Source: an uncultured virus (IMG/VR IMGVR_UViG_3300009181_007169) (Duplodnaviria > Heunggongvirae > Uroviricota > Caudoviricetes). Taken from it: a stretch of DNA of 64,000 nt. Positions 21,171 through 32,239 of the stretch are shown in pieces. Location: IMG/VR virus record IMGVR_UViG_3300009181_007169; one strand, written 5' to 3'. Position 1 is the first letter of the stretch. Every line of letters starts with the position of its first letter. The notes beneath the pieces were generated by a model, which was given only the letters and a program-made list of their open reading frames with translations, ran no database searches and had not been told where the DNA came from. The position numbers and the translations under genes were made by a program.

Positions 21171-21956
21171 TTATACGCTATAATCCTTTATATATTCTTT
21201 TTCTAAACACAAAAGTTCCAAAATACTCACACAATCTGAATCATTTCCAAGCCATTTTTGAATTAAACTGTCTTTTCTTCGCCACTTGCCAGAATTATAA
21301 TATTCAAAGCCTGGAAAATTTATTTTATAAATTCCTGCATTTTCAGCAACACAGCCAATGTAAACATAATCAAATCCTAATGATTTAGCATACTCCACTT
21401 CTTGTATTTGTGAAAATTTACCTAAACTCAATTTAGAATTTTCATAATCCCAGCAAAATTGGTATGATACTAAACTATTTTGAAAAACTTGAATCAAGCA
21501 AAAACCAATAAGTTTATTGTCTAGCCTATATTCTAAAAACTCAAAATCATTTCGGCAAAAACCATCTATAAAATCTTGTAAATTGTCTTTATAATCTTCA
21601 AATTTTTTTGCACGAATATATTTCAAATACACTTCATAAAATTCTTCATAATTTATTTCATTGGCTTTTACATTTTTTGTTAAAACATTATTTTTTAACA
21701 ATCTTCTATCTTTTTTATTCAAAACAAAATCTTTCACTACAATTCTAGAAGATCTCACTGGAACCCAAACAAATTCGCCAGGTTTTTTACATCGAATTGA
21801 ATGTTTGGTATTTTCATTGAGCCAAAAATTATCAGGGAAAAAACCATTTTCTAAAGCATAATCAAATTCATCTTTTTCAAAAATTGCTGTAACAAGTGTA
21901 TGATTAAAATTATAATCAGTTTGCTGAAAAAGAATATGATCAAAAAATATTTTCAT
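21171..21956 (-). CDS. Aminoacyl-tRNA--protein transferase (ATE/Bpt-like, GNAT fold)
   Basis: C-terminal WDYENSKLSLGKFSQIQEVEYAKSLGFDYVYIG...YK..F matches the ATE_C pattern; LENGF and RSSRI...F....R.LLK match the N-terminal part. Confidence 0.75.
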   Translation of the reverse strand: MKIFFDHILFQQTDYNFNHTLVTAIFEKDEFDYALENGFFPDNFWLNENTKHSIRCKKPGEFVWVPVRSSRIVVKDFVLNKKDRRLLKNNVLTKNVKANEINYEEFYEVYLKYIRAKKFEDYKDNLQDFIDGFCRNDFEFLEYRLDNKLIGFCLIQVFQNSLVSYQFCWDYENSKLSLGKFSQIQEVEYAKSLGFDYVYIGCVAENAGIYKINFPGFEYYNSGKWRRKDSLIQKWLGNDSDCVSILELLCLEKEYIKDYSV

Positions 21957-22498
21957 TCTACTGTAAAAATTTTATTCAATGGCTTATAATCTATTTTAGA
22001 AACATCTGGCTGCAATCCTGTATCATGCCACAAAATTCTATTGTTTGGCGCAGCTGCAATGTTGCCATTGTCTAAAAATAAAATGTGACAGCATTTTGCT
22101 ATGCCTGGATGATCAGAATATTCAGAATCATAAAAATCCACTGTAGTGAAGTAAGTGGCATCATATTTAATTCTTTTTTCGCCCGAATAATATTCACATC
22201 TTAAATACTTTAAATAATCATAAGTGATATTAGAAACATGAAAACTAAAAGCATCATAAGTGACTAAATTTTCTAAATTCATTTTTTCATAATCTTTTTT
22301 CAATACTAAAGAATGAACGGGAAGTTTGGAAAACATTGCTCCATGTTCTGTTAAAACATGAAATTGCAGCACCTGCCCTCTAGTGCTACTAATAGCAAAA
22401 GCTTTAGCTTTAATCAAAGCATCAGATTGTGTAAAGTTGGTTAAAAATTCTTTTTTCACATAACATTCGAAATGGGGAATATTACAATTTAATGTCAT
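21953..22498 (-). CDS. Conserved hypothetical phage protein
   Basis: LN.NIP...VKKEFL...GAMF..LP.H...H...LDNGN.AA.PNNR..W pattern familiar from phage hypothetical proteins. Confidence 0.6.
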   Translation of the reverse strand: MTLNCNIPHFECYVKKEFLTNFTQSDALIKAKAFAISSTRGQVLQFHVLTEHGAMFSKLPVHSLVLKKDYEKMNLENLVTYDAFSFHVSNITYDYLKYLRCEYYSGEKRIKYDATYFTTVDFYDSEYSDHPGIAKCCHILFLDNGNIAAAPNNRILWHDTGLQPDVSKIDYKPLNKIFTVE

Positions 22499-22545
22499 AT
22501 TTTATTTTTACAGGTTTATTAAAAAAATGTTTTAAATAACTTAAT

Positions 22546-23400
22546 ATGGGTAAAATTCCTTATGTTGGACTAAGAATGACAGTAACAGAGCTTAAAAAAT
22601 ATTTGGAAGCTTTGTCTTTTACTACTTTTAAACCACAATTTACAGTGGTTCATCACACAGCCTCACCCAATCTTTCTCAAAGACCTAATGGATTCACTGA
22701 TCAACATTTGCTTAACTTAAAGTATTATTATGAAAATGTTATGAACTGGAATGGTGCTCCTCACTTTTTTGTTGACGATAAAGGCATAATTGTTTTCCAA
22801 GCTTTAAATAAACCTGGAGTGCATGCAAAAAGCTATAATTCGAACTCATGGGGGATTGAAATGCTCGGTGATTACGACACATCTACTGATTTTAATTCGC
22901 TTAGGGCAAAAGAAATTTTCGAAAACACTCATGAGCTTGTAGGATTTCTATGCCACTTTTTAAAAGTAGATCCAACTTCATTAAAGTTTCACAGAGATGA
23001 CCCATTGACGAACAAAACATGTCCAGGCAAATTAGTGGATAAACCAACATTCATTAAAGAAGTTAATAAATTTTACCAAATCTATAATGGTGATGGAGTG
23101 GATTCATGGACAAATCCTGTATTTGAAATTACTTTTGAATCAAATGTTTTTATTTGGTCACAAACTAGAGTAGAAAATTCAAGAACCATTATTCCAGCAA
23201 GAGCTTTTATCAATAAATTAATGCCCAAAAACTTTGCGTTAACCAAGTTAGGTGATAATGTAATTTGGATGAATGGCTTAAAGGGTTACTCCACACCTGT
23301 GGCAGAAGTGGATGAAGCTGGTAATGCATGGATTTTCTTAAGAAATGTTTGCGAAAAAACAGGGGCAAAATTTGAACTGGTTAGAGCAAAAAAATTGTAA
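22546..23400 (+). CDS. N-acetylmuramoyl-L-alanine amidase (Amidase_2 family), probable endolysin
   Basis: VVHHTA, HFFV, HA..YN..SWGIEM.G, FHRD, KTCPG zinc-amidase motifs. Confidence 0.88.
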   Translation: MGKIPYVGLRMTVTELKKYLEALSFTTFKPQFTVVHHTASPNLSQRPNGFTDQHLLNLKYYYENVMNWNGAPHFFVDDKGIIVFQALNKPGVHAKSYNSNSWGIEMLGDYDTSTDFNSLRAKEIFENTHELVGFLCHFLKVDPTSLKFHRDDPLTNKTCPGKLVDKPTFIKEVNKFYQIYNGDGVDSWTNPVFEITFESNVFIWSQTRVENSRTIIPARAFINKLMPKNFALTKLGDNVIWMNGLKGYSTPVAEVDEAGNAWIFLRNVCEKTGAKFELVRAKKL

Positions 23401-23409
23401 AATAAATTT

Positions 23410-23718
23410 ATGAAATTTAACTCATCTACACAATCTGAAAAAGCTTTAACTAAAGAAGAATTTAATAATTATGCACAGCTTCGTTCTGGGGTATTAAACT
23501 TGAAAGGCAAGCGCTCTGACATATTTGACATGTTGAGAAATGTAGAAAAACAAATGGCTTCTTTGCAAGAAGAATTTAGAGCTAATCAAGAAATGATAGA
23601 AAAACTTGAAATGGAATTTCAAACATTTATTGATGACCTTGGTAAGAAATATGAATTGGGAAATGGGCTATTTAACATTTCAGAAAATGCACCACACACA
23701 ATTGAGCTGGTCTCATAA
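23410..23718 (+). CDS. Hypothetical coiled-coil protein
   Basis: 102-aa ORF directly after the amidase. Confidence 0.6.
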   Translation: MKFNSSTQSEKALTKEEFNNYAQLRSGVLNLKGKRSDIFDMLRNVEKQMASLQEEFRANQEMIEKLEMEFQTFIDDLGKKYELGNGLFNISENAPHTIELVS

Positions 23719-23825
23719 TTTGTTTTGTGTGAAGGTAATCAAATGACCATCAAATAAAAAAAGAGAATTTTTGAATCTAAAAAACAGAAAAAAAACGTTT
23801 TTATCAAATACCCATCAAATAAAAA

Positions 23826-23899
23826 TGGCACCAGAGCTGGGATTTGAACCCAGGCAAAAAGGTTTCGAAGACCTATTGGAACAACCTACTCTCTCTGGT
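23826..23899 (-). tRNA. trnR: tRNA-Arg(TCG), degenerate D-arm
   Basis: Acceptor ACCAGAG/CTCTGGT, G73-CCA, T-arm CTGGG-TTCAAAT-CCCAG, anticodon loop CTTCGAA. Confidence 0.75.
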
Positions 23900-23902
23900 A
23901 TA

Positions 23903-23976
23903 TGGAGCACGATACTGGACTTGAACCAGTGATCAGGATTTTGCAGACCCTCGCCTTGCCTCTTGGCTAATCGTGC
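23903..23976 (-). tRNA. trnC: tRNA-Cys(GCA)
   Basis: Full cloverleaf, loop CTGCAAA, U73-CCA. Confidence 0.93.
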
Positions 23977-23979
23977 GTT

Positions 23980-24053
23980 TGGGGGCAAATAAAAGAATCG
24001 AACTTTTGTCTTAGATGTATGAAATCTGCGCTCTACCATTAAGCTAATTTGCC
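23980..24053 (-). tRNA. tRNA with CAT anticodon (Met or Ile2)
   Basis: GGCAAAT/ATTTGCC acceptor, loop TTCATAC, unusual C73, encoded CCA. Confidence 0.85.
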
Positions 24054-24058
24054 GAAAT

Positions 24059-24133
24059 TGGTATCCGAATTTGGATTTGAACCAAAAACCTCAATCTTAT
24101 ATAGATTATGCTCTGCCATTGAGCTACTCGGAT
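24059..24133 (-). tRNA. trnI: tRNA-Ile(TAT) with A at position 33
   Basis: Cloverleaf, stem TAATC/GATTG, loop TATATAA, A73-CCA. Confidence 0.75.
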
Positions 24134-24134
24134 A

Positions 24135-24221
24135 TGGCTGAGGAACCACGATTCGAACGTGGACAAGCAAATATGTCTCTAGGGTCAAAACCTAGCGTGT
24201 TACCAATTACACTATTCCTCA
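24135..24221 (-). tRNA. trnQ: tRNA-Gln(TTG) with long variable arm
   Basis: U1-A72, G73, loop TTTTGAC, 16-nt variable region AGACATATTTGCTTGT. Confidence 0.88.
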
Positions 24222-24227
24222 GTAAAA

Positions 24228-24301
24228 TGGTGTTGCCCGAAGGAATTGAACCTTCGCCTTCCCCTGCAGTGGGACGCTCTACCAACTGAGCTAGAGACAA
24301 C
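24228..24301 (-). tRNA. tRNA-like gene of undetermined identity (shortened anticodon arm)
   Basis: Canonical D-arm (TAGCTCAGTTGGTAGAGC), T-arm and CCA; anticodon arm TCCC-ACTGCAG-GGGA has only 4 bp. Confidence 0.65.
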
Positions 24302-24308
24302 ATAAACT

Positions 24309-24395
24309 TGGCGGAAGCGGAGAGATTCGAACTCTCAAGACCTTATCAGCCCAGCCGTTTTCAAGACGGTTTATCACACCTATGACAGCACTTCC
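24309..24395 (-). tRNA. trnS: tRNA-Ser(TGA)
   Basis: GGAAGTG/CGCTTCC, G73-CCA, loop CTTGAAA, long variable arm. Confidence 0.9.
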
Positions 24396-24886
24396 TTTAT
24401 TTTTAATTTACTATCGCTTACTTTTTCCAAAATAATTATACCGCGAGAAACCTCTGCATGATGGTTTGGGCAGATAGCAAACATATTTCCTATTTTATAT
24501 TCACCACCTTCTTTTCCAGGTATGTGTCTATGAATATCATAAGTGATATTATAGTTGCATCCCTCAACCATACAAGATGTAATAGCAAACTCAGTCAAAA
24601 GTATTGACAATCTGAGTTTAGATTTATTATTCCATACATTTCCATCTTTGCGGTAATGAATTCCACAACGGCTTTTATTTGAACAACTACGACTACAAAA
24701 TGTAGATTTTGAACTATCTGGTTTGAAAAAATTTTGACACACTGGGCATTTCTTTTCTGCAAGTTTATTTGTTTTTTTAGATGGATTACAACTAGAACAA
24801 TAAAATTTTATTTGTGCTTTTATTTGAAATGGTCTGCGATAAATTTCATTCGAGCAGATTGAGCATTGAGTGTTTGGTTTTCTCAT
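24380..24886 (-). mobile_element. Free-standing HNH homing endonuclease with N-terminal Zn fingers inside the tRNA array
   Basis: MRKPNTQCSIC..YCSSC..CPVC..FCSRSC; C-terminal DIHRHIPGKEGG.Y...NMFAICPNHHAEV. Start moved to ATG 24886 because the track start lies inside tRNA-Ser(GCT). Confidence 0.85.
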
Positions 24887-24950
24887 ATGTGAATATTCAA
24901 AACTTAATAAAACCACTCCTGCACAGAGCCAACTGGTCACTCCCCGTATA

Positions 24951-25037
24951 TGGAGGAAGGCACTGGAATTGAACCAGAGACCTTTCAGTCCGAAATGTTT
25001 AGCAAACATTCGCCAAAACCATTCAGCATTACCTTCC
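24951..25037 (-). tRNA. trnS: tRNA-Ser(GCT)
   Basis: GGAAGGT/GCCTTCC, loop TTGCTAA, long variable arm, CCA. Confidence 0.9.
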
Positions 25038-25047
25038 TTAAAAAATT

Positions 25048-25123
25048 TGGTGGATTCCCAGAGAATTGAACTCTATCCTAAGCGTCTTCAGCGCTTCGTG
25101 CACACCAGCTACACCTGAAATCC
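25048..25123 (-). tRNA. trnF: tRNA-Phe(GAA)
   Basis: Stem AAGCG/CGCTT, loop CTGAAGA, A73-CCA. Confidence 0.92.
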
Positions 25124-25127
25124 ATAT

Positions 25128-25203
25128 TGGAGCGATATGTCAGACTTGAACTGACACAATCTGGTTGGAAGCCAGGTATGCTAACCATTAACATCAATAT
25201 CGC
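25128..25203 (-). tRNA. trnG: tRNA-Gly(TCC)
   Basis: GCGATAT/ATATCGC, loop CTTCCAA, U73-CCA. Confidence 0.93.
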
Positions 25204-25214
25204 TCATTATTTTA

Positions 25215-25226
25215 TTGTCAAAGTAC
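25215..25226 (-). promoter_or_regulatory. boxA-like element upstream of tRNA array 1
   Basis: GTACTTTGACAA, similar to rrn boxA; a related 12-mer sits at the same place before array 2. Confidence 0.45.
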
Positions 25227-25228
25227 AT

Positions 25229-25267
25229 AAAAAAATCCCTGAAGTTTTTTTGGTCTTCAGGGATTTT
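25229..25267 (-). terminator. Intrinsic terminator (attenuator) between leader peptide 1 and tRNA array 1
   Basis: AAAATCCCTGAAG-10-nt loop-CTTCAGGGA-TTTTTTT. Confidence 0.85.
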
Positions 25268-25294
25268 GGTGAAAATTTTGCTTACAGCAGGATT

Positions 25295-25360
25295 TTAGCC
25301 ACTACCCCCTTGGGTTGACCACATAAAACATCCAATACTGCCCTGCAAATTTAATTTCAT
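25295..25360 (-). CDS. Putative attenuator leader peptide 1, MKLNLQGSIGCFMWSTQGGSG (21 aa)
   Basis: AAGGAA RBS at 25367-25372, ATG 25360, TAA 25295-25297; codons match array-1 tRNAs; terminator follows. Confidence 0.8.
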   Translation of the reverse strand: MKLNLQGSIGCFMWSTQGGSG

Positions 25361-25449
25361 AATTATTTCCTTATTATATATATACGACACAATCTCCTAT
25401 TTGTTCTGTAAAAATTAGGTTTTTTTATTTTTTTCTTGAAATTCAGATT

Positions 25450-27195
25450 GTGTGGTATAAATTTGCAAAAATAATTATAGCTGGCAAAGAACATATAATA
25501 AGGAAGATTGCAGAATATTTTAGCGATCAAGGGCAGGATCCTTCCCAACTTAGTGAGAGACTAAATGAGCTTGATAAAGCAAATAAACTTCCAATTATAG
25601 AATTAAGAAAAGATGGAGTGATGTTTGATAATAACATTTACACAGATTTTCTTAAATTTACCGAAGCTGTAGATGCTCTTCATACTATATTAGTTTTCTC
25701 CAAACAAATAAAAGAACAAAAAGAATTAACTAAAGAAAAAATTGATTTTGTACCAGGAAAGATACAAGTAGTTGCCTGCAATGATGTCAATGACGCAATT
25801 AGATATGGCGCAGGAACAAGTTGGTGTATATCACAGCCTGGAAATACAGAATTTCAATCCTATAAGAATAAATACCAATCTACTTTTTACTATGTAAATG
25901 ATGGCACCAGACCACCAGAAGATCCATTATCAAGAGTGATGGTTGATATGCAAGCAAATGGTATCGTAAAACTTACGGACAAAAATAATCGCACTGGGAC
26001 AATAGCTGAGTTTGACGAAGATCATGAAGCTTATTTTGATTATCTTAGAAAAAACGGTGTAGATACATCACAATTTGTAAATAAAACTCTAACAGAAGAA
26101 GAAATAAATGAAAATGAATTATTAGAATACAGAAATGTTACACCAAATTGGTTTGAAAAGTTACCATTAAAATTACAACTTAAATATATAGGAAGAGGAC
26201 ATCTTTTAACGGATGAACAATTAAAATTCATTATTAATTTACCAACAATATCTGGATATTTGATTGAACAATATCTTAATACAGGAGTTAGTATTCCTCA
26301 AAGTCAAAAAGATATGCTTTTTGGCAAAAAACAATACAAAGACACTTATGACAGAAGAAGAGCAATTGCAATAAAAGAGATTAAAGAAGAGTTTGGGAAT
26401 GATAAGTATAGTCTAACAAGATATGCTTTAGAACATGGAGATTTTGAATTAATTGATGAAATCATAAATGAAAAAGACATAAGAAATTTTTATGATATAA
26501 AAGCACCCGAAGAAATGCTGAGATACTTGTTCAGCAAGGGATTAAGTGCAGATAATGTAGCTTGGGAGTGGGTTTCAGACAATTCACTATCTGAAAATTT
26601 TATTGAAGAATTTCAAGATCGTCTTGGTTGGTTTGAGATTTCACGAATGCAAATACTATCTGAAGATTTTATCAGAAGATACAAAGATGATGTGTATTGG
26701 AATTATATTTCCTCTTACCAAAATCTATCTGGAGATTTTATTTTAGAATTTGCTAAACGTTTAGACATGGATAAAGTCTTGAGGAATTATCCAATACCTG
26801 AAAAAATAATTAGAAATTTTGTAGACCGTGTGATTTGGGATGAAATTCCACGGCGTCAAAAACTATCTGAGGATTTCATCAAAGATTTTGCAGGTCGTTT
26901 GGGTTGGGGTAATATTTCACATTACCAAACACTATCCGAAGATTTTATCAGAAAATTCAAAGATAAGGTGAATTGGTATAATATTTCAAAAAAACAAACA
27001 CTATCTGAAGAATTCATTCGTGAATTTGCAGATAGTGTGGATTGGCGCGGGATTTCATTCAATCAAACACTATCGGAGGATTTCATCAAAGAATTTGCAG
27101 AACGTTTGAGTTGGGATGGGATTTCACAAAACCCTAAAATCTCAAGACAAACCAAACTCAATGTTTATTACAAGCTAAAATTTAAAAAACCCTAA
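25450..27195 (+). CDS. Tryptophan-repeat protein, paralog 1
   Basis: YGAGTSWCIS N-terminal domain; C-terminal ~22-aa repeats W..IS..Q.LSE.FI..F.D.V; MWYKFAK start. Confidence 0.75.
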   Translation: MWYKFAKIIIAGKEHIIRKIAEYFSDQGQDPSQLSERLNELDKANKLPIIELRKDGVMFDNNIYTDFLKFTEAVDALHTILVFSKQIKEQKELTKEKIDFVPGKIQVVACNDVNDAIRYGAGTSWCISQPGNTEFQSYKNKYQSTFYYVNDGTRPPEDPLSRVMVDMQANGIVKLTDKNNRTGTIAEFDEDHEAYFDYLRKNGVDTSQFVNKTLTEEEINENELLEYRNVTPNWFEKLPLKLQLKYIGRGHLLTDEQLKFIINLPTISGYLIEQYLNTGVSIPQSQKDMLFGKKQYKDTYDRRRAIAIKEIKEEFGNDKYSLTRYALEHGDFELIDEIINEKDIRNFYDIKAPEEMLRYLFSKGLSADNVAWEWVSDNSLSENFIEEFQDRLGWFEISRMQILSEDFIRRYKDDVYWNYISSYQNLSGDFILEFAKRLDMDKVLRNYPIPEKIIRNFVDRVIWDEIPRRQKLSEDFIKDFAGRLGWGNISHYQTLSEDFIRKFKDKVNWYNISKKQTLSEEFIREFADSVDWRGISFNQTLSEDFIKEFAERLSWDGISQNPKISRQTKLNVYYKLKFKKP

Positions 27196-27265
27196 CATCT
27201 CAGACCAAACCAAACACAATCTGAAAGCAGCAGGATATCCGATACAAATTTAGGAAATTCAGATT

Positions 27266-28978
27266 GTGTGGTATAGATTTGCAAAAATAATTATAGCTGG
27301 CAAAGAACATATAATAAGGAAGATTGCAGATTATTTCAGTAATCAAGGGCACAATACTTCCCAACTTAGTGAGAGACTAAATGAGCTTGATAAAGCAAAT
27401 AAACTTCCAATTATAGAATTAAGAAAAGATGGAGTGATGTTCGATAATAAATTTTACACAGATTTTCTTGAATTTACCGAAGCAGTGGACGCTCTTTATA
27501 CTGAATTGATTTTTTTAAAACAAAAAAAAGAACAAAAAGAATTAACTAAAGAAAAAATTAATTTTACACCTGGAGAGATACAAGTATTTGCTTGTAATAG
27601 TGTTAACGATACAATTAGATATGGTGCAGGAACATCATGGTGTATATCACAACCTGGAAATACAATGTTTCAATCCTACAGGGATAATTACCAATCCACT
27701 TTTTACTATGTAAGTGATGGGACAAGACCACCAGAAGATCCATTATCAAGAGTGATGGTTGATATGCAAGCAAAAGGTATCGTAAAACTTACTGACAAAA
27801 ATAATCAAACTGGGACAATAGCTGAGTTTGGCAATGATTATGAAACTTATTTTGATTATCTTAGACAAAATGGTGTAGATACATCAATATTTGTAAATAA
27901 ACCCGTAACAGAAGAAGAAAGAAAAGAAAATGAATTATTAGGAAAAAGAAATGTTACACCAAATTGGTTTGAAGAGTTGCCAGCAGAATATAAATCTAAA
28001 TATATAGGCAGGGGGCATCTTTTAACTGATCAACAATTAGAGTCTATTATTAATTTACAATCTGTGACATCAAATAATACAGCTGATTTTTTGATTGAAC
28101 AATATCTTAATACAGGAATTAGTATCCCTCCAAGCCAAAAAGCTATGCTTTTTGGCAATAATCAATACAGAGCCACTTATAACAGAAGAAGAAACATTGC
28201 AATAGAAGAGATTAAAAAACATCTTGGGAATGATGATTGGCGTGTAAAAGACTATGCTTTGAGATCTGGAGATTTTGAATTAATTGATGAAATCATAAAT
28301 GAAAAAGGTATAAATAATTATAATTTTTATTATGTTAACGCACCAGAAGAAATGCTGAGATACTTGTTTAGTAAGGGATTAAGTGCAGATCGTGTAGCTT
28401 GGGATTTGATTTCAAGCCGCCCACTATTGTCTGAAGAATTCATTCGTGAATTTGCAGACAGTTTGGATTGGGACATAATTTCACAATACCAAACACTATC
28501 TGGAGATTTTATTTTAGATTTCGAAGACAGTTTAGACATGGATAAAGTCTTGAAGAATTATCCAATACCTGAAAAAGTAATTAGAACATTTGCAGACCGC
28601 GTGGATTGGAATGAAATTTCACGTAAACAACCACTATCTGAAGAATTCATCAGAGAATTTAAAAACCGTGTGGATTGGTGGAGTATTTCAGCTAAACAAA
28701 AATTGTCTGAGGATTTCATCATAGAATTTGCAGACCGTGTGAATTGGAAGGAAATTTCATGGCACCAAAAATTGTCTGAGGATTTGATCAAAGATTTTGC
28801 AGACCGTGTGGATTGGACTGTGATTTCACGTAACCAAAAATTGTCTGAAAGATTCATCAAAGAATTTGCAGAATTTGGTCGCATAAATCCTTATAGTCTT
28901 GAAATTAATCCAAATATATCAGATAAGATTAAAAAACAGTTGGGGACCTTATTCCCGTGGTATAGACCCTCAACTTAG
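27266..28978 (+). CDS. Tryptophan-repeat protein, paralog 2 (tandem duplicate)
   Basis: Near-identical N-terminal DNA and protein to the 25450 ORF; same repeats. Confidence 0.75.
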   Translation: MWYRFAKIIIAGKEHIIRKIADYFSNQGHNTSQLSERLNELDKANKLPIIELRKDGVMFDNKFYTDFLEFTEAVDALYTELIFLKQKKEQKELTKEKINFTPGEIQVFACNSVNDTIRYGAGTSWCISQPGNTMFQSYRDNYQSTFYYVSDGTRPPEDPLSRVMVDMQAKGIVKLTDKNNQTGTIAEFGNDYETYFDYLRQNGVDTSIFVNKPVTEEERKENELLGKRNVTPNWFEELPAEYKSKYIGRGHLLTDQQLESIINLQSVTSNNTADFLIEQYLNTGISIPPSQKAMLFGNNQYRATYNRRRNIAIEEIKKHLGNDDWRVKDYALRSGDFELIDEIINEKGINNYNFYYVNAPEEMLRYLFSKGLSADRVAWDLISSRPLLSEEFIREFADSLDWDIISQYQTLSGDFILDFEDSLDMDKVLKNYPIPEKVIRTFADRVDWNEISRKQPLSEEFIREFKNRVDWWSISAKQKLSEDFIIEFADRVNWKEISWHQKLSEDLIKDFADRVDWTVISRNQKLSERFIKEFAEFGRINPYSLEINPNISDKIKKQLGTLFPWYRPST

Positions 28979-29013
28979 CAGGATATCCAATAAAAAATTA
29001 GTAAATTCAGATT

Positions 29014-29337
29014 GTGTGGTATAGATATTCTCAAAAAAAAATTCTACCTCCGGTACATGAAGGTTGCAAATGCTACATTGAACAAATGCCAGGGGGGAAC
29101 ACAATCTGGCAATTTACTGGAAACACTTGTGAAACCTGTAAAATTTTAGGAAGAGAATATAACCAAAAACAAAATTCGCCTGCTAACGAGCCTGCGCTTA
29201 TAAAGCCACCTATACCTGAACCACCAGCAGTTATTGAAGAGCCTTTATTTAATGAAGAAAAAAATACACAACAAATGAATTTCATGAACTTTAAATATGT
29301 TCCAAGAATATTTTATGATTTAAAAAATGGTCAGTGA
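29014..29337 (+). CDS. Small MWY-start protein with PPxHxxCxC motif (MuF-like Zn motif)
   Basis: LPPVHEGCKCYI...CETC; same upstream sequence as the two paralogs. Confidence 0.55.
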   Translation: MWYRYSQKKILPPVHEGCKCYIEQMPGGNTIWQFTGNTCETCKILGREYNQKQNSPANEPALIKPPIPEPPAVIEEPLFNEEKNTQQMNFMNFKYVPRIFYDLKNGQ

Positions 29338-29404
29338 GGTGGGATTTGAACCCACGCGCCTCTGGGTCACAACCAAAGAGCTCTACCATTTAAGCTACTC
29401 ACTT
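29328..29404 (-). tRNA. trnH: tRNA-His(GTG), atypical acceptor end
   Basis: Loop TTGTGAC, canonical D and T arms, A73-CCA, no encoded G-1:C73. Confidence 0.85.
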
Positions 29405-29407
29405 ATG

Positions 29408-29490
29408 TGGTACCGAAGGTGGGATTTGAACCCACACGTCAAAAGACAATAGTTTCTAAGACTATCGCGGCTACATTACGCCACTTCGGT
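29408..29490 (-). tRNA. trnL: tRNA-Leu(TAG)
   Basis: ACCGAAG/CTTCGGT, loop CTTAGAA, long variable arm, A73-CCA. Confidence 0.92.
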
Positions 29491-29494
29491 ATTA

Positions 29495-29573
29495 TGGTGT
29501 AAAATGTGGGATTCGAACCCACCTGATATCCAAGGTGCAAGCTTGGCGACCACCCCCAGCAGTCCCATTTCAC
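29495..29573 (-). tRNA. trnA: tRNA-Ala(TGC)
   Basis: Loop CTTGCAC, G3:U70 identity pair, A73-CCA. Confidence 0.92.
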
Positions 29574-29580
29574 GAAAATT

Positions 29581-29665
29581 TGGTGGGGACAGTAGGACTC
29601 GAACCTACGAAATCTTTCGATAGAAGATTTACAGTCTTCTGCAATTGCCGCTATGCGATATCCCC
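29581..29665 (-). tRNA. trnY: tRNA-Tyr(GTA)
   Basis: Loop CTGTAAA, long variable arm, A73-CCA. Confidence 0.94.
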
Positions 29666-29670
29666 AAACT

Positions 29671-29749
29671 TGGTCTACATGGCTGGATTTGAACCAGCGT
29701 ACTCAATCTCCCAAGGATTGCGAGGTAAGCCAAACTCCTCAACATGTAG
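29671..29749 (-). tRNA. trnP: tRNA-Pro(TGG)
   Basis: C1-G72, A73, loop CTTGGGA. Confidence 0.92.
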
Positions 29750-29848
29750 ATGAATTTTCGGCTGGATGAAGGGCGTCCTTAGTCATCCACTTACGGGTCA
29801 CCACTTAGAGAGAGTTTAATTCAACCTTGGTACCACCACGATATTTAA

Positions 29849-29860
29849 TTGTCAATGTTC
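29849..29860 (-). promoter_or_regulatory. boxA-like element upstream of tRNA array 2
   Basis: GAACATTGACAA immediately after the attenuator terminator. Confidence 0.45.
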
Positions 29861-29865
29861 ATAAT

Positions 29866-29902
29866 AAAAAAACCCCCGAAAGTTTTTGTCCTTCGGGGGT
29901 TT
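29866..29902 (-). terminator. Intrinsic terminator (attenuator) between leader peptide 2 and tRNA array 2
   Basis: AAACCCCCGAAGG-ACAAAAA-CTTTCGGGGG-TTTTTTT. Confidence 0.88.
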
Positions 29903-29938
29903 GTAGCTTGTCAAATACGCGACTAGCCACTACCCCGA
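29893..29938 (-). promoter_or_regulatory. Antiterminator hairpin of attenuator 2
   Basis: TCGGGG/CCCCGA, GTGGCT/AGCTAC and GTC/GAC pairings; sequesters the 5' arm of the terminator and contains the leader stop codon. Confidence 0.75.
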
Positions 29939-29983
29939 TGAGGGTGCGTAGGCTGGATAGAGATGTCGTAGCGAATTTGTCAT
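29930..29983 (-). CDS. Putative attenuator leader peptide 2, MTNSLRHLYPAYAPSSG (17 aa)
   Basis: AAGGAA RBS at 29990-29995, ATG 29983, TAG 29930-29932; codons match array-2 tRNAs. Confidence 0.82.
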   Translation of the reverse strand: MTNSLRHLYPAYAPSSG

Positions 29984-30030
29984 TTTAGTTTCCTTTTTTA
30001 AATATTATGATTATAAGACGTAATTACCTT

Positions 30031-31038
30031 TTAAAAAGTTTCAGTTTTTTTTACTTTTAAAATTCTATCTTTCGTGAAACAAATAGGTTCTTTTTTGATT
30101 GAATTGCTCACCTCTAAGTCATTTTTACCAACAATAGAATGTGTAGAGCTATTGCTATTCCCGAATTGTGTGAAAGGAAGTTTGCTAATTTGAGAGATAT
30201 TATAAATGTGAACTTGAGTTTTCGCACTTCTTTCAATCTTCCTCAAAATCTTATGCAAAGTCTTTGATTTAAAAACTTTTTTGAAAATAATGTCTTTAAA
30301 TTGCTCAGAAAAAATAATGCTATCTCTGAATTCGTAAACATTTCCAACATTTATTTTGAAATTACCCCTAATGTCTTCTGATATCCAGCCTCTTTTAATG
30401 AATGCTAAGGCGTTTTTTTCAATTTCTGTCCACTCTTCTTCACCTCTTGTTATAAACGGATAACGAAACCTAGCAAAAGCAATAAAATTGAGTTCTGCTT
30501 CACTGATGCCATGCTTTTTCATCAATTTATTGCGATTAAACTTAGTCAAGTTCAAAACTTTTGCTTGAAAAACATCTTCTGGCATTAGCTGTGGGGCTAT
30601 TCCCCAATTAAAATTCGTGAAAAAATTTGAGTATTTTTCTTTCAAAAAGAAAAGATTAATCAAAAAAATTGCTCTAGACAGAAATGAACTTTTTTTATGT
30701 AATAATCTTTCTCGAAATGTTGTTTTATCCTTTTCCTTAGGTATTTTCGAATCTAAGCTTGAGCCTGATAATGGACGCAAGCGTTGTGTTTTGCGCTCAT
30801 CCTGATAAATAAGACTAGCATCAGCTTCCAAAAATCCTTCTTTATCCTCAAAAATAGAAATGTAAGGTGGGGATGTATCGTAATTAATAAGATCTATTAC
30901 TTCTGGGACCCCAGGTAATTCAGATGCTAAGTAAATAATTCTTTTTTCTGGCTCATCATCCACTTCATTTTTTTTTGAAATAGCTTTTTCAGACTGTGTT
31001 TTTTCAACTAATTTATTCTCAGATGCAATTTCACTCAT
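30031..31038 (-). CDS. Hypothetical protein (335 aa)
   Basis: Long ORF with a TGTATAAA element 6 nt upstream. Confidence 0.65.
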   Translation of the reverse strand: MSEIASENKLVEKTQSEKAISKKNEVDDEPEKRIIYLASELPGVPEVIDLINYDTSPPYISIFEDKEGFLEADASLIYQDERKTQRLRPLSGSSLDSKIPKEKDKTTFRERLLHKKSSFLSRAIFLINLFFLKEKYSNFFTNFNWGIAPQLMPEDVFQAKVLNLTKFNRNKLMKKHGISEAELNFIAFARFRYPFITRGEEEWTEIEKNALAFIKRGWISEDIRGNFKINVGNVYEFRDSIIFSEQFKDIIFKKVFKSKTLHKILRKIERSAKTQVHIYNISQISKLPFTQFGNSNSSTHSIVGKNDLEVSNSIKKEPICFTKDRILKVKKTETF

Positions 31039-31057
31039 GTACTATTTATACACAATT

Positions 31058-31474
31058 TTACCTTACTCTAAAAAAAGTTGAATAATGATCACCTGTATAA
31101 AAAACTTCACCTTTTTTTCCAATTACCACTCTTTGTGAGCCTGGGAAAGGAAAACCGTTCATTTGATGGACAAATTCTCTATAATATTGAACATCTGTGC
31201 TTACTGGAAGTTTACGTAGGGAATTAGAAAAAAATGTACCATCATTATTGTGGTTTAATTTTTTACCCAATCTAATTCTTTCTACCGTAGGATTGACATC
31301 CATTCTACCTTGGTATATCAACCTTCCAAAATCAATCACTCTTACATTTGGTAAAACATTCACTCGTCCGATAACAGAGTTTATATGTGGTCTGCCAAAA
31401 GTAGCTTGTGAATAAGAAGAAGAAAAAACAGCAAAAAAAGCAGTTAAATTCAATATTGTTTTAGTTATTTTCAT
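31058..31474 (-). CDS. Secreted barnase/RNase Sa-family (guanyl-specific) ribonuclease
   Basis: Signal peptide; F.N..R.LP....YYREF, G.QRVVIG..GEVFYT.DHY.TF with catalytic E, R and H. Confidence 0.85.
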   Translation of the reverse strand: MKITKTILNLTAFFAVFSSSYSQATFGRPHINSVIGRVNVLPNVRVIDFGRLIYQGRMDVNPTVERIRLGKKLNHNNDGTFFSNSLRKLPVSTDVQYYREFVHQMNGFPFPGSQRVVIGKKGEVFYTGDHYSTFFRVR

Positions 31475-31483
31475 TTTTATCCT

Positions 31484-31684
31484 TTACGAAGTAAAATCTG
31501 GAAAAATTCTATGATTTGAATCAACATAACCATGTTCAATTAAAACATCAACGATACAATGTATTTTTGCTTCTTCAATAAGATTTTTTGAAATCCTATC
31601 ATCACAATCTCCATGATCTTCAGATAGAGCAATATTAAAATTGTCATTTACAATATTCAATATTTTGTTGTAAGCTCTAATCAT
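31484..31684 (-). CDS. Hypothetical protein (66 aa)
   Basis: ORF upstream of the RNase in the same operon. Confidence 0.5.
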   Translation of the reverse strand: MIRAYNKILNIVNDNFNIALSEDHGDCDDRISKNLIEEAKIHCIVDVLIEHGYVDSNHRIFPDFTS

Positions 31685-31906
31685 ATTTTATTTTTGTTTA
31701 AAAATTGTTTTTAACCTTCAATTAAGATTGTGTGAGAATATTTACGCCCTTTTCCTTACACTGACGGCATTCTCTATTTTATTATACATATTTTTTTTTC
31801 CTTAGTTCTAATTTAGATTAATTAAGATTAATTAATATATTCTTTTCCTAATTAGTGAAGGTCATTTTTTTTAAGGATTTTTTTTTCTTTCTTGTAAAAT
31901 ATAAAT

Positions 31907-32239
31907 ATGGTTTTTTCAAAATTATTTAAAGCTGCTTCACTTATTCAACACTCTCGACCTGATTTATCGAGTGAATTAAATAAAATTGCACAAGATTTAT
32001 CACAATCTATCGCAAACAACTCAACAGAAAATCTTGGATTAAATCCAAACATTAAAAATTTCGCAAACCCTTCAACACAATCTGAGCAGAAAAAAACACA
32101 TAAAATAACATTCACAGTTGATGTGCCACCTTCTTGGGGGGAATTAGAAATTATGAATAAACTTTTGCCTGTATTAAAACAAATGGACGCAACAGAAAAA
32201 GACTTAGAAATCAAGGGTTACCAGTTTACACAATTTTAA
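31907..32239 (+). CDS. Hypothetical protein with KxA-ending N-terminal leader
   Basis: LFKAASLIQ....SSELNKIAQ. Confidence 0.6.
   Translation: MVFSKLFKAASLIQHSRPDLSSELNKIAQDLSQSIANNSTENLGLNPNIKNFANPSTQSEQKKTHKITFTVDVPPSWGELEIMNKLLPVLKQMDATEKDLEIKGYQFTQF

Follow-up and report, generated by a model that had tools for sequence, protein, structure and literature searches.

Candidate leader-peptide attenuators upstream of two tRNA arrays in an uncultured freshwater jumbo phage

What decides when a phage transcribes its tRNA genes? Phage tRNA genes are usually discussed as aids to codon usage or as spares against host defences that cut tRNAs, and to our knowledge little is known about the control of their expression. 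The question is raised by a 64 kb stretch of DNA, here called the window, in which two paralogous units of an uncultured freshwater jumbo phage precede two tRNA arrays. We suggest that these units are probably ribosome-dependent transcription attenuators, each with a tRNA-type promoter before it and a tRNA array behind it.

Layout of the two units

Both tRNA arrays lie on the minus strand and are preceded, 5' to 3', by the same series of elements: a TATAAT hexamer, an AAGGAA sequence, an ORF of 17 or 21 codons, a 13-mer, a U-tailed hairpin and a box, after which the tRNAs follow. A preliminary description of the locus had listed this shared layout, and every element in it is present on the minus strand.

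In the unit of array 2, the -10-like TATAAT hexamer (30010–30015), where the transcript would start, and the Shine-Dalgarno sequence AAGGAA (29990–29995) were both recognised in the sequence. They are followed by the leader 2 ORF (29930–29983), identified from the sequence and the relatives, which has 17 codons and a TAG stop and encodes MTNSLRHLYPAYAPSSG. The 13-mer GGGGTAGTGGCTA (29924–29936; exact match) has the stop codon within it and would be region 2 of the switch. Folding predicts intrinsic terminator 2 at 29870–29902, with 13 pairs and a U7 tail (29869–29863), and its 5' arm would be region 3. The conserved boxA-like box TTATGAACATTGACAATTAAAT was located by a pattern scan (29843–29864), and a conserved spacer RNA (29750–29842) leads from the box to tRNA-Pro. 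This spacer is about 93 nt long in the window, or 98 nt if measured from the end of TTGACAAT, and it contains two conserved hairpins. It gave no match in the Rfam scans. It is present in the window and in lineages L140, L150 and L151, and absent from L155, L130 and L143. Array 2 itself (29328–29749) is predicted to encode tRNAs Pro(UGG), Tyr(GUA), Ala(UGC), Leu(UAG) and His(GUG).

The unit of array 1 is built in the same way. Its -10-like TATAAT hexamer (25373–25378), replaced by CGTATAAT or CGTATAACTATAAT at this position in relatives, is directly followed by the Shine-Dalgarno sequence AAGGAA (25367–25372) and then by the leader 1 ORF (25295–25360), with 21 codons and a TAA stop, encoding MKLNLQGSIGCFMWSTQGGSG; both the AAGGAA and the ORF are seen in the sequence and in the relatives. 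The exact copy of the 13-mer (25296–25308), region 2 of switch 1, has its last two bases in the stop codon. Intrinsic terminator 1 (25232–25267) has 13 pairs and a U7 run (25235–25229); it was missed by the hairpin scan, because its loop is 10 nt long, and was found by folding. The boxA-like box TTATGTACTTTGACAATAAAAT found by the pattern scan (25209–25230) stands before array 1 (23826–25203), for which tRNA prediction gives Gly(UCC), Phe(GAA), Ser(GCU), Ser(UGA), Ala(UGC), Gln(UUG), Ile(UAU), Met(CAU), Cys(GCA) and Arg(UCG). The array is interrupted between the two Ser tRNAs by an HNH endonuclease ORF (24380–25009; PHROGs). The tRNA-Ser(GCU), at about 25032–24951, was missed by ARAGORN at default settings and corresponds to the AGT codons of leader 1.

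The 13-mer at the stop codon is identical in both leaders and occurs exactly twice in the 64 kb; when up to two mismatches are allowed there are six matches against 0.23 expected, a number reached by none of 100 shuffles. In a scan of the window, the 22-base box pattern with up to three mismatches matched only the two array sites, each without a mismatch. A Shine-Dalgarno-like 4-mer precedes just 8 of the 46 long ORFs of the window. The two leaders are paralogues in which the sequences of regions 1 and 3 differ and the 13-mer is identical. As the reading frame of the 13-mer differs between the two ORFs, with the TAG of leader 2 inside it and the TAA of leader 1 reaching just past it, the 13-mer is kept as RNA and not as peptide.

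The layout is kept in about ten related lake-phage lineages, including a diverged one. A scan of metagenome contigs gave 29 stretches, among which six contigs in seven loci are chance matches, and the remaining stretches carry the leader and tRNA arrays. We compared 16 distinct leader sequences (nine of leader 1 and seven of leader 2). All 16 have an ATG start with AGGAA 6–9 nt upstream, and TTGACAAT of the box is invariant in all of them. Hexamers of TATAAT or TAATAT type are found at the -10 position of the leaders in relatives. Five codons of leader 2 (L5, P10, A11, A13 and S15) change at the third position only among its seven sequences. One relative, G001, encodes 25 tRNAs, and eight other tRNA genes in it (Asp-Asn-Thr, Met-Glu, Met, Lys and Arg) have no leader and carry TATAAT 5–13 nt before the tRNA. 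The same type of -10 hexamer also stands before the leaders.

Alternative helices in the leaders

The 13-mer has two partners, the end of the leader ORF (helix 1:2) and the 5' arm of the terminator (helix 2:3). Folding shows that these two helices and the terminator hairpin (3:4) are mutually exclusive in both leaders, with energies for 1:2, 2:3 and 3:4 of -12.3, -23.5 and -19.6 kcal/mol in leader 2 and of -9.5, -16.0 and -15.0 kcal/mol in leader 1. In the 1:2 helix of leader 2 the 13-mer pairs with ORF codons 10–15. In leader 1 it pairs with TGGTCAACCC, i.e., the codons W-S-T, and 10 of 10 pairs are invariant in 9 of 9 sequences.

When the 3' arm of the terminator is removed, five of the six leaders folded (both window leaders, both leaders of L151 and leader 2 of L155) have a minimum free energy structure in which the 13-mer region is paired to the 5' terminator arm; in leader 1 of L155 this pairing appears only with a ribosome modelled on the ORF. 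Folding with and without a ribosome footprint, as had been proposed for this locus, separates two states. The 2:3 pairing persists with the A site of an early ribosome up to codon 11–12 in leader 2 or codon 13 in leader 1, and it disappears when the ribosome occupies the stop or the final codons before it. L155 and the diverged L151 show this dependence on ribosome position as well.

Compared with 300 dinucleotide shuffles, the leader 2 antiterminator is stabler than 99.3–100% of them in all seven sequences. However, the leader 1 antiterminator is not above chance, with 1.7–26% of the shuffles equalling its energy and arm pairing, and the terminator arm is unpaired in the unconstrained fold of 4 of the 9 leader 1 variants. 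Thus, of the attenuator reading put forward in the preliminary description, the layout, the exclusive helices and the antiterminator of leader 2 stand, while the antiterminator of leader 1 does no better than shuffled sequence. Across the distinct leader sequences the helices are 92–100% paired. Double-sided changes number zero in the 1:2 and 2:3 helices and one in a terminator (nine leader 1 and seven leader 2 sequences): terminator 1, which is 100% paired in the nine leader 1 sequences, has a single compensatory pair, UA to CG, in L151. Since the helices are nearly invariant, the predicted structures rest on folding and conservation and not on covariation.

We suggest the following mechanism. 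Transcription would begin at the TATAAT, and a ribosome would load on the AAGGAA and translate the leader of 17 or 21 codons, as the conservation of the ORFs indicates. Region 2, i.e., the 13-mer, could then pair back with the last leader codons (1:2) or forward with region 3, the 5' terminator arm (2:3, the antiterminator); this arm would otherwise be part of the terminator hairpin (3:4), which is followed by U7. An unhindered ribosome arriving at the stop codon would cover region 2, the terminator would form, and the tRNAs would not be transcribed. In leader 2 a ribosome could instead stall on the core codons H L Y P A, and in leader 1 on Q G S I G C F M; stalled there, it would mask region 1 and leave the 13-mer free, so that the antiterminator could form and the polymerase could read on. 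This polymerase would pass the boxA-like element, may there load Nus factors for the untranslated array, and would enter the tRNA genes. Most likely, the element is a real attenuator, a known mechanism in a new variant. For leader 2 the attenuator is well supported, as its antiterminator beats the shuffles and its core matches all five tRNAs.

Leader codons and the tRNAs of the arrays

With core windows that were picked after the fold had been seen, the core of leader 2 (codons 7–11, H L Y P A) contains one codon for each array-2 tRNA (5 of 5; simulated P 2.5e-6), and the core of leader 1 (codons 6–14, Q G S I G C F M W) samples 6 of the 10 array-1 tRNAs in the window (P 0.005 by simulation). 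The same core takes in 8 of 10 tRNAs in L150, and in L155 it takes in 9 of 11 (P about 1e-5 to 1e-6). Simulations of whole leaders give P values between 2e-5 and 1.5e-3. The window contains 275 ORFs of 15–25 codons; among these, leader 2 ranks first in its match to array 2, and leader 1 ranks only about third to sixth in its match to array 1. Fisher tests against the 25-tRNA repertoire of G001 gave values from 0.017 to 0.0001. In these comparisons each leader is enriched in codons for the tRNAs of its own array, and the codons are divided between the two leaders accordingly.

The contrasts in amino acids noted earlier are confirmed, as leader 1 lacks H, Y, A and P and leader 2 lacks Q, I, C and F. 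The codon mirror, described as reciprocal, is one-sided: leader 1 is free of array-2 codons (0 of 20), but leader 2 contains S, R and G codons, which belong to array 1. Covariation between leader and array in the relatives, named beforehand as a test that could refute the proposal, gave a mixed result. V in the leader and tRNA-Val are found together in four lineages and are both missing in two; however, two further lineages (L143 and L151) have tRNA-Val and a leader without V. Ala codons never occur in leader 1 although tRNA-Ala is present in every array 1. Leader 1 of the window retains TGG and ATT, where the Trp tRNA now reads UCG and the Ile(GAU) tRNA is now UAU, and the CGA of leader 2 is found in lineages without tRNA-Arg(UCG). 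RNA pairing fixes W-S-T in leader 1 and codons 10–15 in leader 2, so that these positions of the peptide cannot freely follow the tRNAs.

Because the core codons are the codons read by the downstream tRNAs, the circuit would be a homeostat, in which a shortage of a usable tRNA of the set would turn the set on and the products of the set would turn it off again. From the codons of this test ORF and the switchable stop behind it, the tRNAs would probably be made only when ribosomes read those codons slowly. A more specific reading, which we hold tentatively, is that each leader is a miniature test ORF that samples the tRNAs of its own array with one codon each, and that the terminator opens only if one of these tRNAs is lacking. 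In this way the phage could detect the loss of particular host tRNAs and supply exactly the matching set. Such a loss may be caused by anticodon nucleases of host defence, for which the preliminary description named PrrC, VapC, PARIS and retron nucleases as examples, by the phage's own host shut-off or by codon mismatch, and the two sensors would cover two separate sets of tRNAs.

The units could also be real translation-coupled attenuators that sense the overall translation capacity or the speed of ribosomes, for example during host shut-off, ribosome shortage or general starvation, and not particular downstream tRNAs. The codon match would then partly reflect constraints on the RNA, together with the presence of most tRNAs in the phage genome in any case. 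With the 25 tRNAs of G001, nearly every leader codon is indeed served by some phage tRNA; moreover, the leaders have stayed much the same as tRNAs were gained, lost and re-aimed in the arrays, each tRNA is sampled just once or twice, and several leader codons are fixed by the pairing of the 13-mer. We nevertheless consider a sensor of general capacity unlikely, as the partition is specific: array-2 codons are missing from leader 1, and in the core of leader 2 the five codons correspond exactly to the five tRNAs of array 2. Further, D and E occur in neither leader, K and N are confined to the first four codons (leader 1 of L151 has N also at codon 19), and T stands second in leader 2 (fourth in L151) and, in leader 1, at a codon that is fixed by pairing. 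The tRNAs for D, E, K, N and T are transcribed without leaders in G001.

The box, a possible second promoter and known systems

The form of the leader 1 box in most relatives, TGTTCTTTGACAAT, equals the E. coli rrnB leader site CTCTTTAACAAT (located in NC_000913.3), which we take to be boxA, at 10 of 12 positions; the same 451 bases contain two more matches with three mismatches, and 7 of 200 shuffles give at least three matches. The leader 2 box is less like the rrnB site than the leader 1 box. Within the box, a hexamer TAAAAT or TTAAAT lies 5–6 nt before the first tRNA of array 1, tRNA-Gly, and in leader 2 of L155 TTTAAT lies 6 nt before tRNA-Pro. As these hexamers occupy the position where leaderless tRNA genes carry TATAAT, a second promoter within the box is conceivable.

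If the arrays used this promoter, downstream of the terminator, the small ORF and its terminator would be a separate short unit that either encodes a micro-peptide or insulates against transcription arriving from upstream. We regard such an arrangement as improbable. The spacing of the hexamer before tRNA-Gly, which resembles that of the TATAAT in the leaderless genes of G001, agrees with it, as do the conserved peptide and the leader 1 antiterminator at chance level. However, none of the five leaderless tRNA promoters, each with a perfect TATAAT, contains TTGACAAT, and the TTGACA is only 1 nt away from the hexamer and therefore cannot be a -35 element. The likeness to the rrnB leader element also argues against a promoter, since the rrnB element works at the RNA level and would have to be reached by a transcript begun further upstream, and in four lineages the box is followed by the 98-nt spacer and not by a tRNA. 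Nor would a separate unit account for the codon match, for the antiterminator of leader 2 or for a stop codon that falls within the 13-mer in two frames. That ordinary terminators of upstream genes with small ORFs before them resemble attenuators by chance is hardly credible: small ORFs are common in AT-rich DNA such as this, and promoter-like hexamer pairs in the region are no commoner than expected from shuffles (44 observed against 40.9), but two paralogous copies share the exact 13-mer and the box, the whole unit (ATG, AGGAA and stop position) is kept across the lineages including the diverged one, and the codon match and the shuffle statistics combined argue otherwise.

Leader-peptide attenuators are known from enterobacterial amino-acid operons (trpL, hisL, pheL, leuL, thrL and ilvL) and from pheM of pheST. 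T-box riboswitches lack a translated leader and sense uncharged tRNA by binding it directly. Like the leaders of the amino-acid operons (for the attenuation mechanism of pheL, see PMC3082878), the attenuators that we propose have a short ORF with a Shine-Dalgarno sequence, regulatory codons, helices 1:2, 2:3 and 3:4, a terminator with a U run, and a stop codon placed so that the terminating ribosome covers region 2. However, the genes controlled here are tRNAs and not enzymes or synthetases. The sampling is also different, with one or two codons for each of five to nine tRNAs here and, in the classical leaders, runs of one or two amino acids with 2–7 repeated codons. Further, the units are phage-borne, exist as two paralogous copies and are followed by a boxA-like element. 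Membership in the Rfam leader families was rejected, with His_leader (RF00514; 26.8 bits, cut-off 49), Phe_leader (RF01859; 19.2, cut-off 55) and the trpB motif (RF04312; 23.9, cut-off 59) all below threshold, and these alignments depend mainly on the terminator hairpin. A T-box would likewise couple the state of a specific tRNA to the choice between antiterminator and terminator; no T-box match to Rfam was found in 22000–32000 at E up to 1 or in 29730–30010 at E up to 10. As in rrn-type boxA and Nus antitermination, the box would head a long untranslated transcript, but here it lies downstream of a proposed attenuator and in a phage.

In our literature searches we met no account of tRNA genes controlled by leader-peptide attenuation, which is in line with the preliminary description, whose author knew of no published case for tRNA operons. 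If our interpretation is correct, these units would be the first case of classical leader-peptide attenuation applied to tRNA genes and a so far undescribed layer of control over viral tRNA genes. They would show how the supply of tRNAs during infection can be governed by simple feedback, and the combination of a small ORF, a switch and a tRNA array would be a signature that can be searched for in viromes. They further point to a small natural device that senses how available individual tRNAs are, testable directly in defined translation systems.

One contig from an RNA library, which is unstranded, may be DNA carry-over and spans plus-strand genes too, covers 29713–29903, i.e., terminator 2, its U run and the sequence into tRNA-Pro, and gives a weak hint of read-through of terminator 2.

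Layout of the two leaders

On the minus strand, both tRNA arrays are preceded by the same series of elements, as the preliminary description had reported: TATAAT, AAGGAA, a small ORF, the exact 13-mer GGGGTAGTGGCTA, a strong hairpin with a U7 tail and a conserved box around TTGACAAT. The most likely reading is that a pair of ribosome-dependent attenuators gates the two arrays; this is well supported for leader 2 and less so for leader 1. The attenuation mechanism itself is known, while its application to tRNA arrays would be new. A full-text literature search, with most subscription journals outside its reach, turned up no description of tRNA genes or phage tRNA arrays under leader-peptide attenuation. 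In Rfam, the leaders belong to no family; the best matches are to His_leader, the trpB motif and Phe_leader, all below threshold and driven by the terminator.

By ARAGORN, the 64-kb window has 14 tRNA genes, which form two arrays and are without exception on the minus strand. A further tRNA-Ser(GCU) at approximately 25032-24951 is found by Rfam and, at a lower threshold, by ARAGORN. Array 2 (29749-29328, minus strand) contains Pro(UGG), Tyr(GUA), Ala(UGC), Leu(UAG) and His(GUG). Array 1 (25203-23826, minus strand) starts with Gly(UCC), Phe(GAA) and Ser(GCU), followed by an HNH endonuclease ORF (24380-25009, minus strand) and then by Ser(UGA), Ala(UGC), Gln(UUG), Ile(UAU), Met(CAU), Cys(GCA) and Arg(UCG). 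This HNH ORF is missing from two related lake-phage stretches, L001 and L150, and is bridged in DNA contigs from other lake samples, with 608-629 bases skipped.

The 13-mer has two exact copies in the window, where just 0.23 would be expected even when two mismatches are allowed, and the 22-base box has no window site besides these two. A near-palindrome, GGAGTAGTGACTACCCC at 5337-5353, holds two copies of the 13-mer with two mismatches, one per strand. Beyond what the preliminary description had noted, the two leaders use the 13-mer in different frames: in leader 2 (minus strand, peptide MTNSLRHLYPAYAPSSG) the stop codon TAG is internal to it, and in leader 1 (minus strand, peptide MKLNLQGSIGCFMWSTQGGSG) the stop codon TAA lies across its end. 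The 13-mer is thus conserved as nucleic acid and not as peptide.

The window is identical to loci on a 239,548-bp freshwater metagenome contig, and its relatives come from contigs 166-347 kb long. Of the 29 stretches that a pattern scan of metagenome contigs yielded, seven loci on six contigs are chance matches and the remainder have a leader followed by tRNAs. Together with two IMG/VR contigs carrying leader and tRNA arrays, this gives about ten lineages, with nine distinct sequences of leader 1 and seven of leader 2. Features that all lineages retain are AGGAA, the ATG, the length of the ORF (17 codons in leader 2, 20-22 in leader 1), the position of the stop relative to the 13-mer, the terminator and an unchanged TTGACAAT.

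In IMG/VR, a loose DNA pattern matches at least 121 loci, mostly by chance, the true relatives among the matches listed being those two contigs; a more specific pattern returns the same two plus two matches without tRNAs. With 14-base box patterns, a tRNA adjoins the box in 3 of at least 238 loci, and none among the matches listed has a full leader. A protein-based IMG/VR search with the upstream 335-aa ORF gave 34 pattern matches, none of them confirmed, and a distant blastn search of GenBank phages with both regions found scattered tRNA similarities only and no relative.

Alternative helices and ribosome position

In folding, both leaders form three mutually exclusive helices, in which the 13-mer is region 2. 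In the 1:2 helix the 13-mer pairs with the end of the ORF, in leader 1 with TGGTCAACCC (the W-S-T codons; all 10 pairs invariant in 9/9 sequences) and in leader 2 with codons 10-15 (96% paired). In the alternative 2:3 helix, the antiterminator, it pairs in both leaders with the 5' arm of the terminator, 3:4. The energies of 1:2, 2:3 and 3:4 in the window are -9.5, -16.0 and -15.0 kcal/mol for leader 1 and -12.3, -23.5 and -19.6 kcal/mol for leader 2.

When the 3' arm of the terminator is omitted and a ribosome is modelled on the ORF, the antiterminator survives as long as the A site is no further than codon 11-12 in leader 2 or codon 13 in leader 1, and is lost once the ribosome sits on the final codons or the stop. 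L155, another relative, and the diverged lineage L151 behave likewise. As modelled, this follows the same logic as the trp attenuator. A ribosome stalled on the core codons would mask region 1 and leave the 13-mer free to form the antiterminator, while a fast ribosome reaching the last codons or the stop would cover the 13-mer, so that the antiterminator would be lost. Such trp-type logic explains why both copies have their stop codon within or on the 13-mer despite the different frames.

The strength of the antiterminator differs between the leaders. In leader 2, only 0-0.7% of 300 dinucleotide shuffles reach its energy (7/7 sequences), while in leader 1 it is equalled by 1.7-26% of shuffles and is not beyond chance. 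Folding with and without a ribosome, which the preliminary description had proposed, bears out a predicted dependence on ribosome position, but with an antiterminator in leader 1 that is no better than shuffles. For four variants of leader 1, folding without constraint favours pairing of the 5' half of the ORF with a segment 3' of the 13-mer; this predicted pairing would fit termination when the leader is untranslated, but is not evidence for it.

The helices are almost invariant, with no double-sided changes in 1:2 and 2:3 and one in the terminator of leader 1. The structures are conserved and, as modelled, thermodynamically plausible, without proof by covariation. Besides folding, the best structural argument is paralogy: the one 13-mer has complements in two different region 1 sequences and in two different terminator arms.

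One metatranscriptome library contains contigs of a close relative, among them one that covers 29713-29903, running from the terminator through the U run and the spacer into tRNA-Pro. As a sign of read-through this is weak at best; the contigs lack strand information and visible ends, plus-strand genes are covered too, and DNA carry-over is possible. Leader 1 and tRNA Gly-Phe have no cover in this one library, which proves nothing.

Leader codons and array tRNAs

Against a null model built on the codon usage of 39 long ORFs in the window, the whole leaders match their own arrays above random peptides (P 2e-5 to 1.5e-3). The most telling codons are those that immediately precede region 1, the place where a stalled ribosome is predicted to mask region 1 and free the 13-mer. 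Codons 7-11 of leader 2, H L Y P A, provide one codon for each tRNA of array 2 (5/5, P 2.5e-6), and codons 6-14 of leader 1, Q G S I G C F M W, sample 6/10 array tRNAs in the window (P 0.005), 8/10 in L150 (P ~1e-5) and 9/11 in L155 (P ~1e-6), all these core P values being somewhat inflated because the cores were picked after the folds had been seen. Among the serine codons of leader 1, two AGT fit tRNA-Ser(GCU) and TCA fits tRNA-Ser(UGA). Among the 275 window ORFs of 15-25 codons, leader 2 ranks first for array 2, while leader 1 comes in only around third to sixth for array 1. The two leaders had been described as reciprocal mirrors of the arrays; this holds for leader 1, which has no codon of the array 2 set, but not for leader 2, in which the array 1 set is represented by S, R and G codons.

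In the 347-kb relative G001, the repertoire comprises 24 tRNA matches (Rfam model) plus an intron-bearing tRNA-Leu(UAA) read by eye. When the leaders are compared with this repertoire by Fisher tests, the values are 0.017-0.001 for leader 1 and 0.002-0.0001 for leader 2. The leaders make little use of the amino acids carried by the leaderless G001 tRNAs: D and E do not occur, and K and N fall within the first four codons, except that leader 1 of L151 has N also at codon 19. For T, one site is codon 2 of leader 2 (codon 4 in L151), and the other is a codon of leader 1 that pairing holds fixed. In the tRNA-Leu of G001 (L162, G001:C1:13600-14060), which is closely followed by a tRNA-Met, the anticodon loop has, by eye, an interruption of ~230 nt, suggestive of a group I-type intron in a tRNA-Leu(UAA).

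Covariation of leader and array among the relatives is mixed. In its favour, a leader 1 form with V, SMVGCFIW, accompanies tRNA-Val in four lineages, while the form without V, SIGCFMW, accompanies the Val-less arrays of the window and L150. In L151, Y12 is replaced by L(CTC) together with an extra tRNA-Leu(GAG), and both I in leader 1 and tRNA-Ile in the array are missing. Against it, L143 and L151 have tRNA-Val and no V in the leader, Ala codons are absent from every leader 1, and CGA is found in leader 2 of several lineages without tRNA-Arg(UCG). As the lineages are closely related, these cases are not a statistical test.

A further mismatch involves changed anticodons. The window "Arg(UCG)" tRNA (23826-23899, minus strand) is identical to Trp(CCA) of L150 at 72/74 positions, the anticodon being the only difference, and the window Ile(UAU) tRNA (24059-24133, minus strand) is identical to Ile(GAU) of L150 at 69/75. 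Judged by sequence, the two pairs are cases of anticodon re-aiming between close relatives, and leader 1 of the window retains TGG and ATT despite the changed anticodons. Composition statistics support the suggestion that the leaders may read the supply of the very tRNAs that they control, while clean covariation is lacking.

Ala(UGC) and Ala(CGC) alternate among lineages. In array 1 of L038 and L151 there are insertions in the first tRNA (the Gly position) and at the Gln position, and ARAGORN reports the inserted tRNAs as intron-bearing or mis-assigns them as Arg(cct), Leu(aag) or His(gtg).

Box, promoters and neighbouring genes

The box in most leader 1 copies is TGTTCTTTGACAAT, equal at 10/12 positions to the E. 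coli rrnB leader site CTCTTTAACAAT, which we take to be boxA. By analogy, a candidate Nus-type antitermination site would make sense at the head of a long untranslated array. Such a site would require transcription from upstream, through the terminator.

Eight tRNAs of G001 outside the arrays (Asp-Asn-Thr, Met-Glu, Met, Lys and Arg(UCU)) are leaderless and have a perfect TATAAT 5-13 nt upstream. The -10 before the leaders is of the same type, CGTATAAT or TGTATAAT, so at the two arrays leader, terminator and box look as if they had been inserted into the gap between an ordinary tRNA promoter and its tRNAs. The box includes TAAAAT or TTAAAT where leaderless tRNA genes carry TATAAT, and so may hold a second, weak promoter. 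The box is rejected as a sigma-70 -35 element, as a 17-bp spacer would place the -10 and the start inside the tRNA. In the E. coli tRNA-Phe genes pheU and pheV (NC_000913.3) the promoter lies directly before the tRNA with no leader, so the idea that these genes follow a Phe-rich leader was rejected.

Between the box and tRNA-Pro lies a conserved spacer of ~93 nt with two hairpins (29750-29842, minus strand; 98 nt from the end of TTGACAAT). The window, L140, L150 and L151 have this spacer, and L155, L130 and L143 lack it. It starts at the box-to-tRNA distance seen elsewhere. Its RNA has no match in Rfam.

The neighbouring genes are of phage type, with matches to endolysin/amidase, head maturation protease, tail and connector proteins and HNH endonucleases. 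An SD-like motif stands before only 8/46 long ORFs of the window. Two paralogous, internally repetitive ORFs lie between the arrays (25450-27195 and 27266-28978, plus strand; 581 and 570 aa; phrog_3532, unknown function). They are not at this position in L001, where the arrays are ~0.5 kb apart, and are probably mobile insertions. Pfam has no match for these two large ORFs, the 335-aa ORF or a 107-aa ORF.

Two genes upstream of leader 2, a 138-aa ORF (31058-31474, minus strand) matches Pfam PF00545, Ribonuclease (barnase/T1 type), with E 1.5e-6. It is pure speculation that such an RNase beside regulated tRNA arrays might bear on the turnover of host RNA or tRNA. A 181-aa ORF (21953-22498, minus strand) matches phrog_3704, annotated as ferredoxin (auxiliary metabolic gene), with E 3.5e-38.
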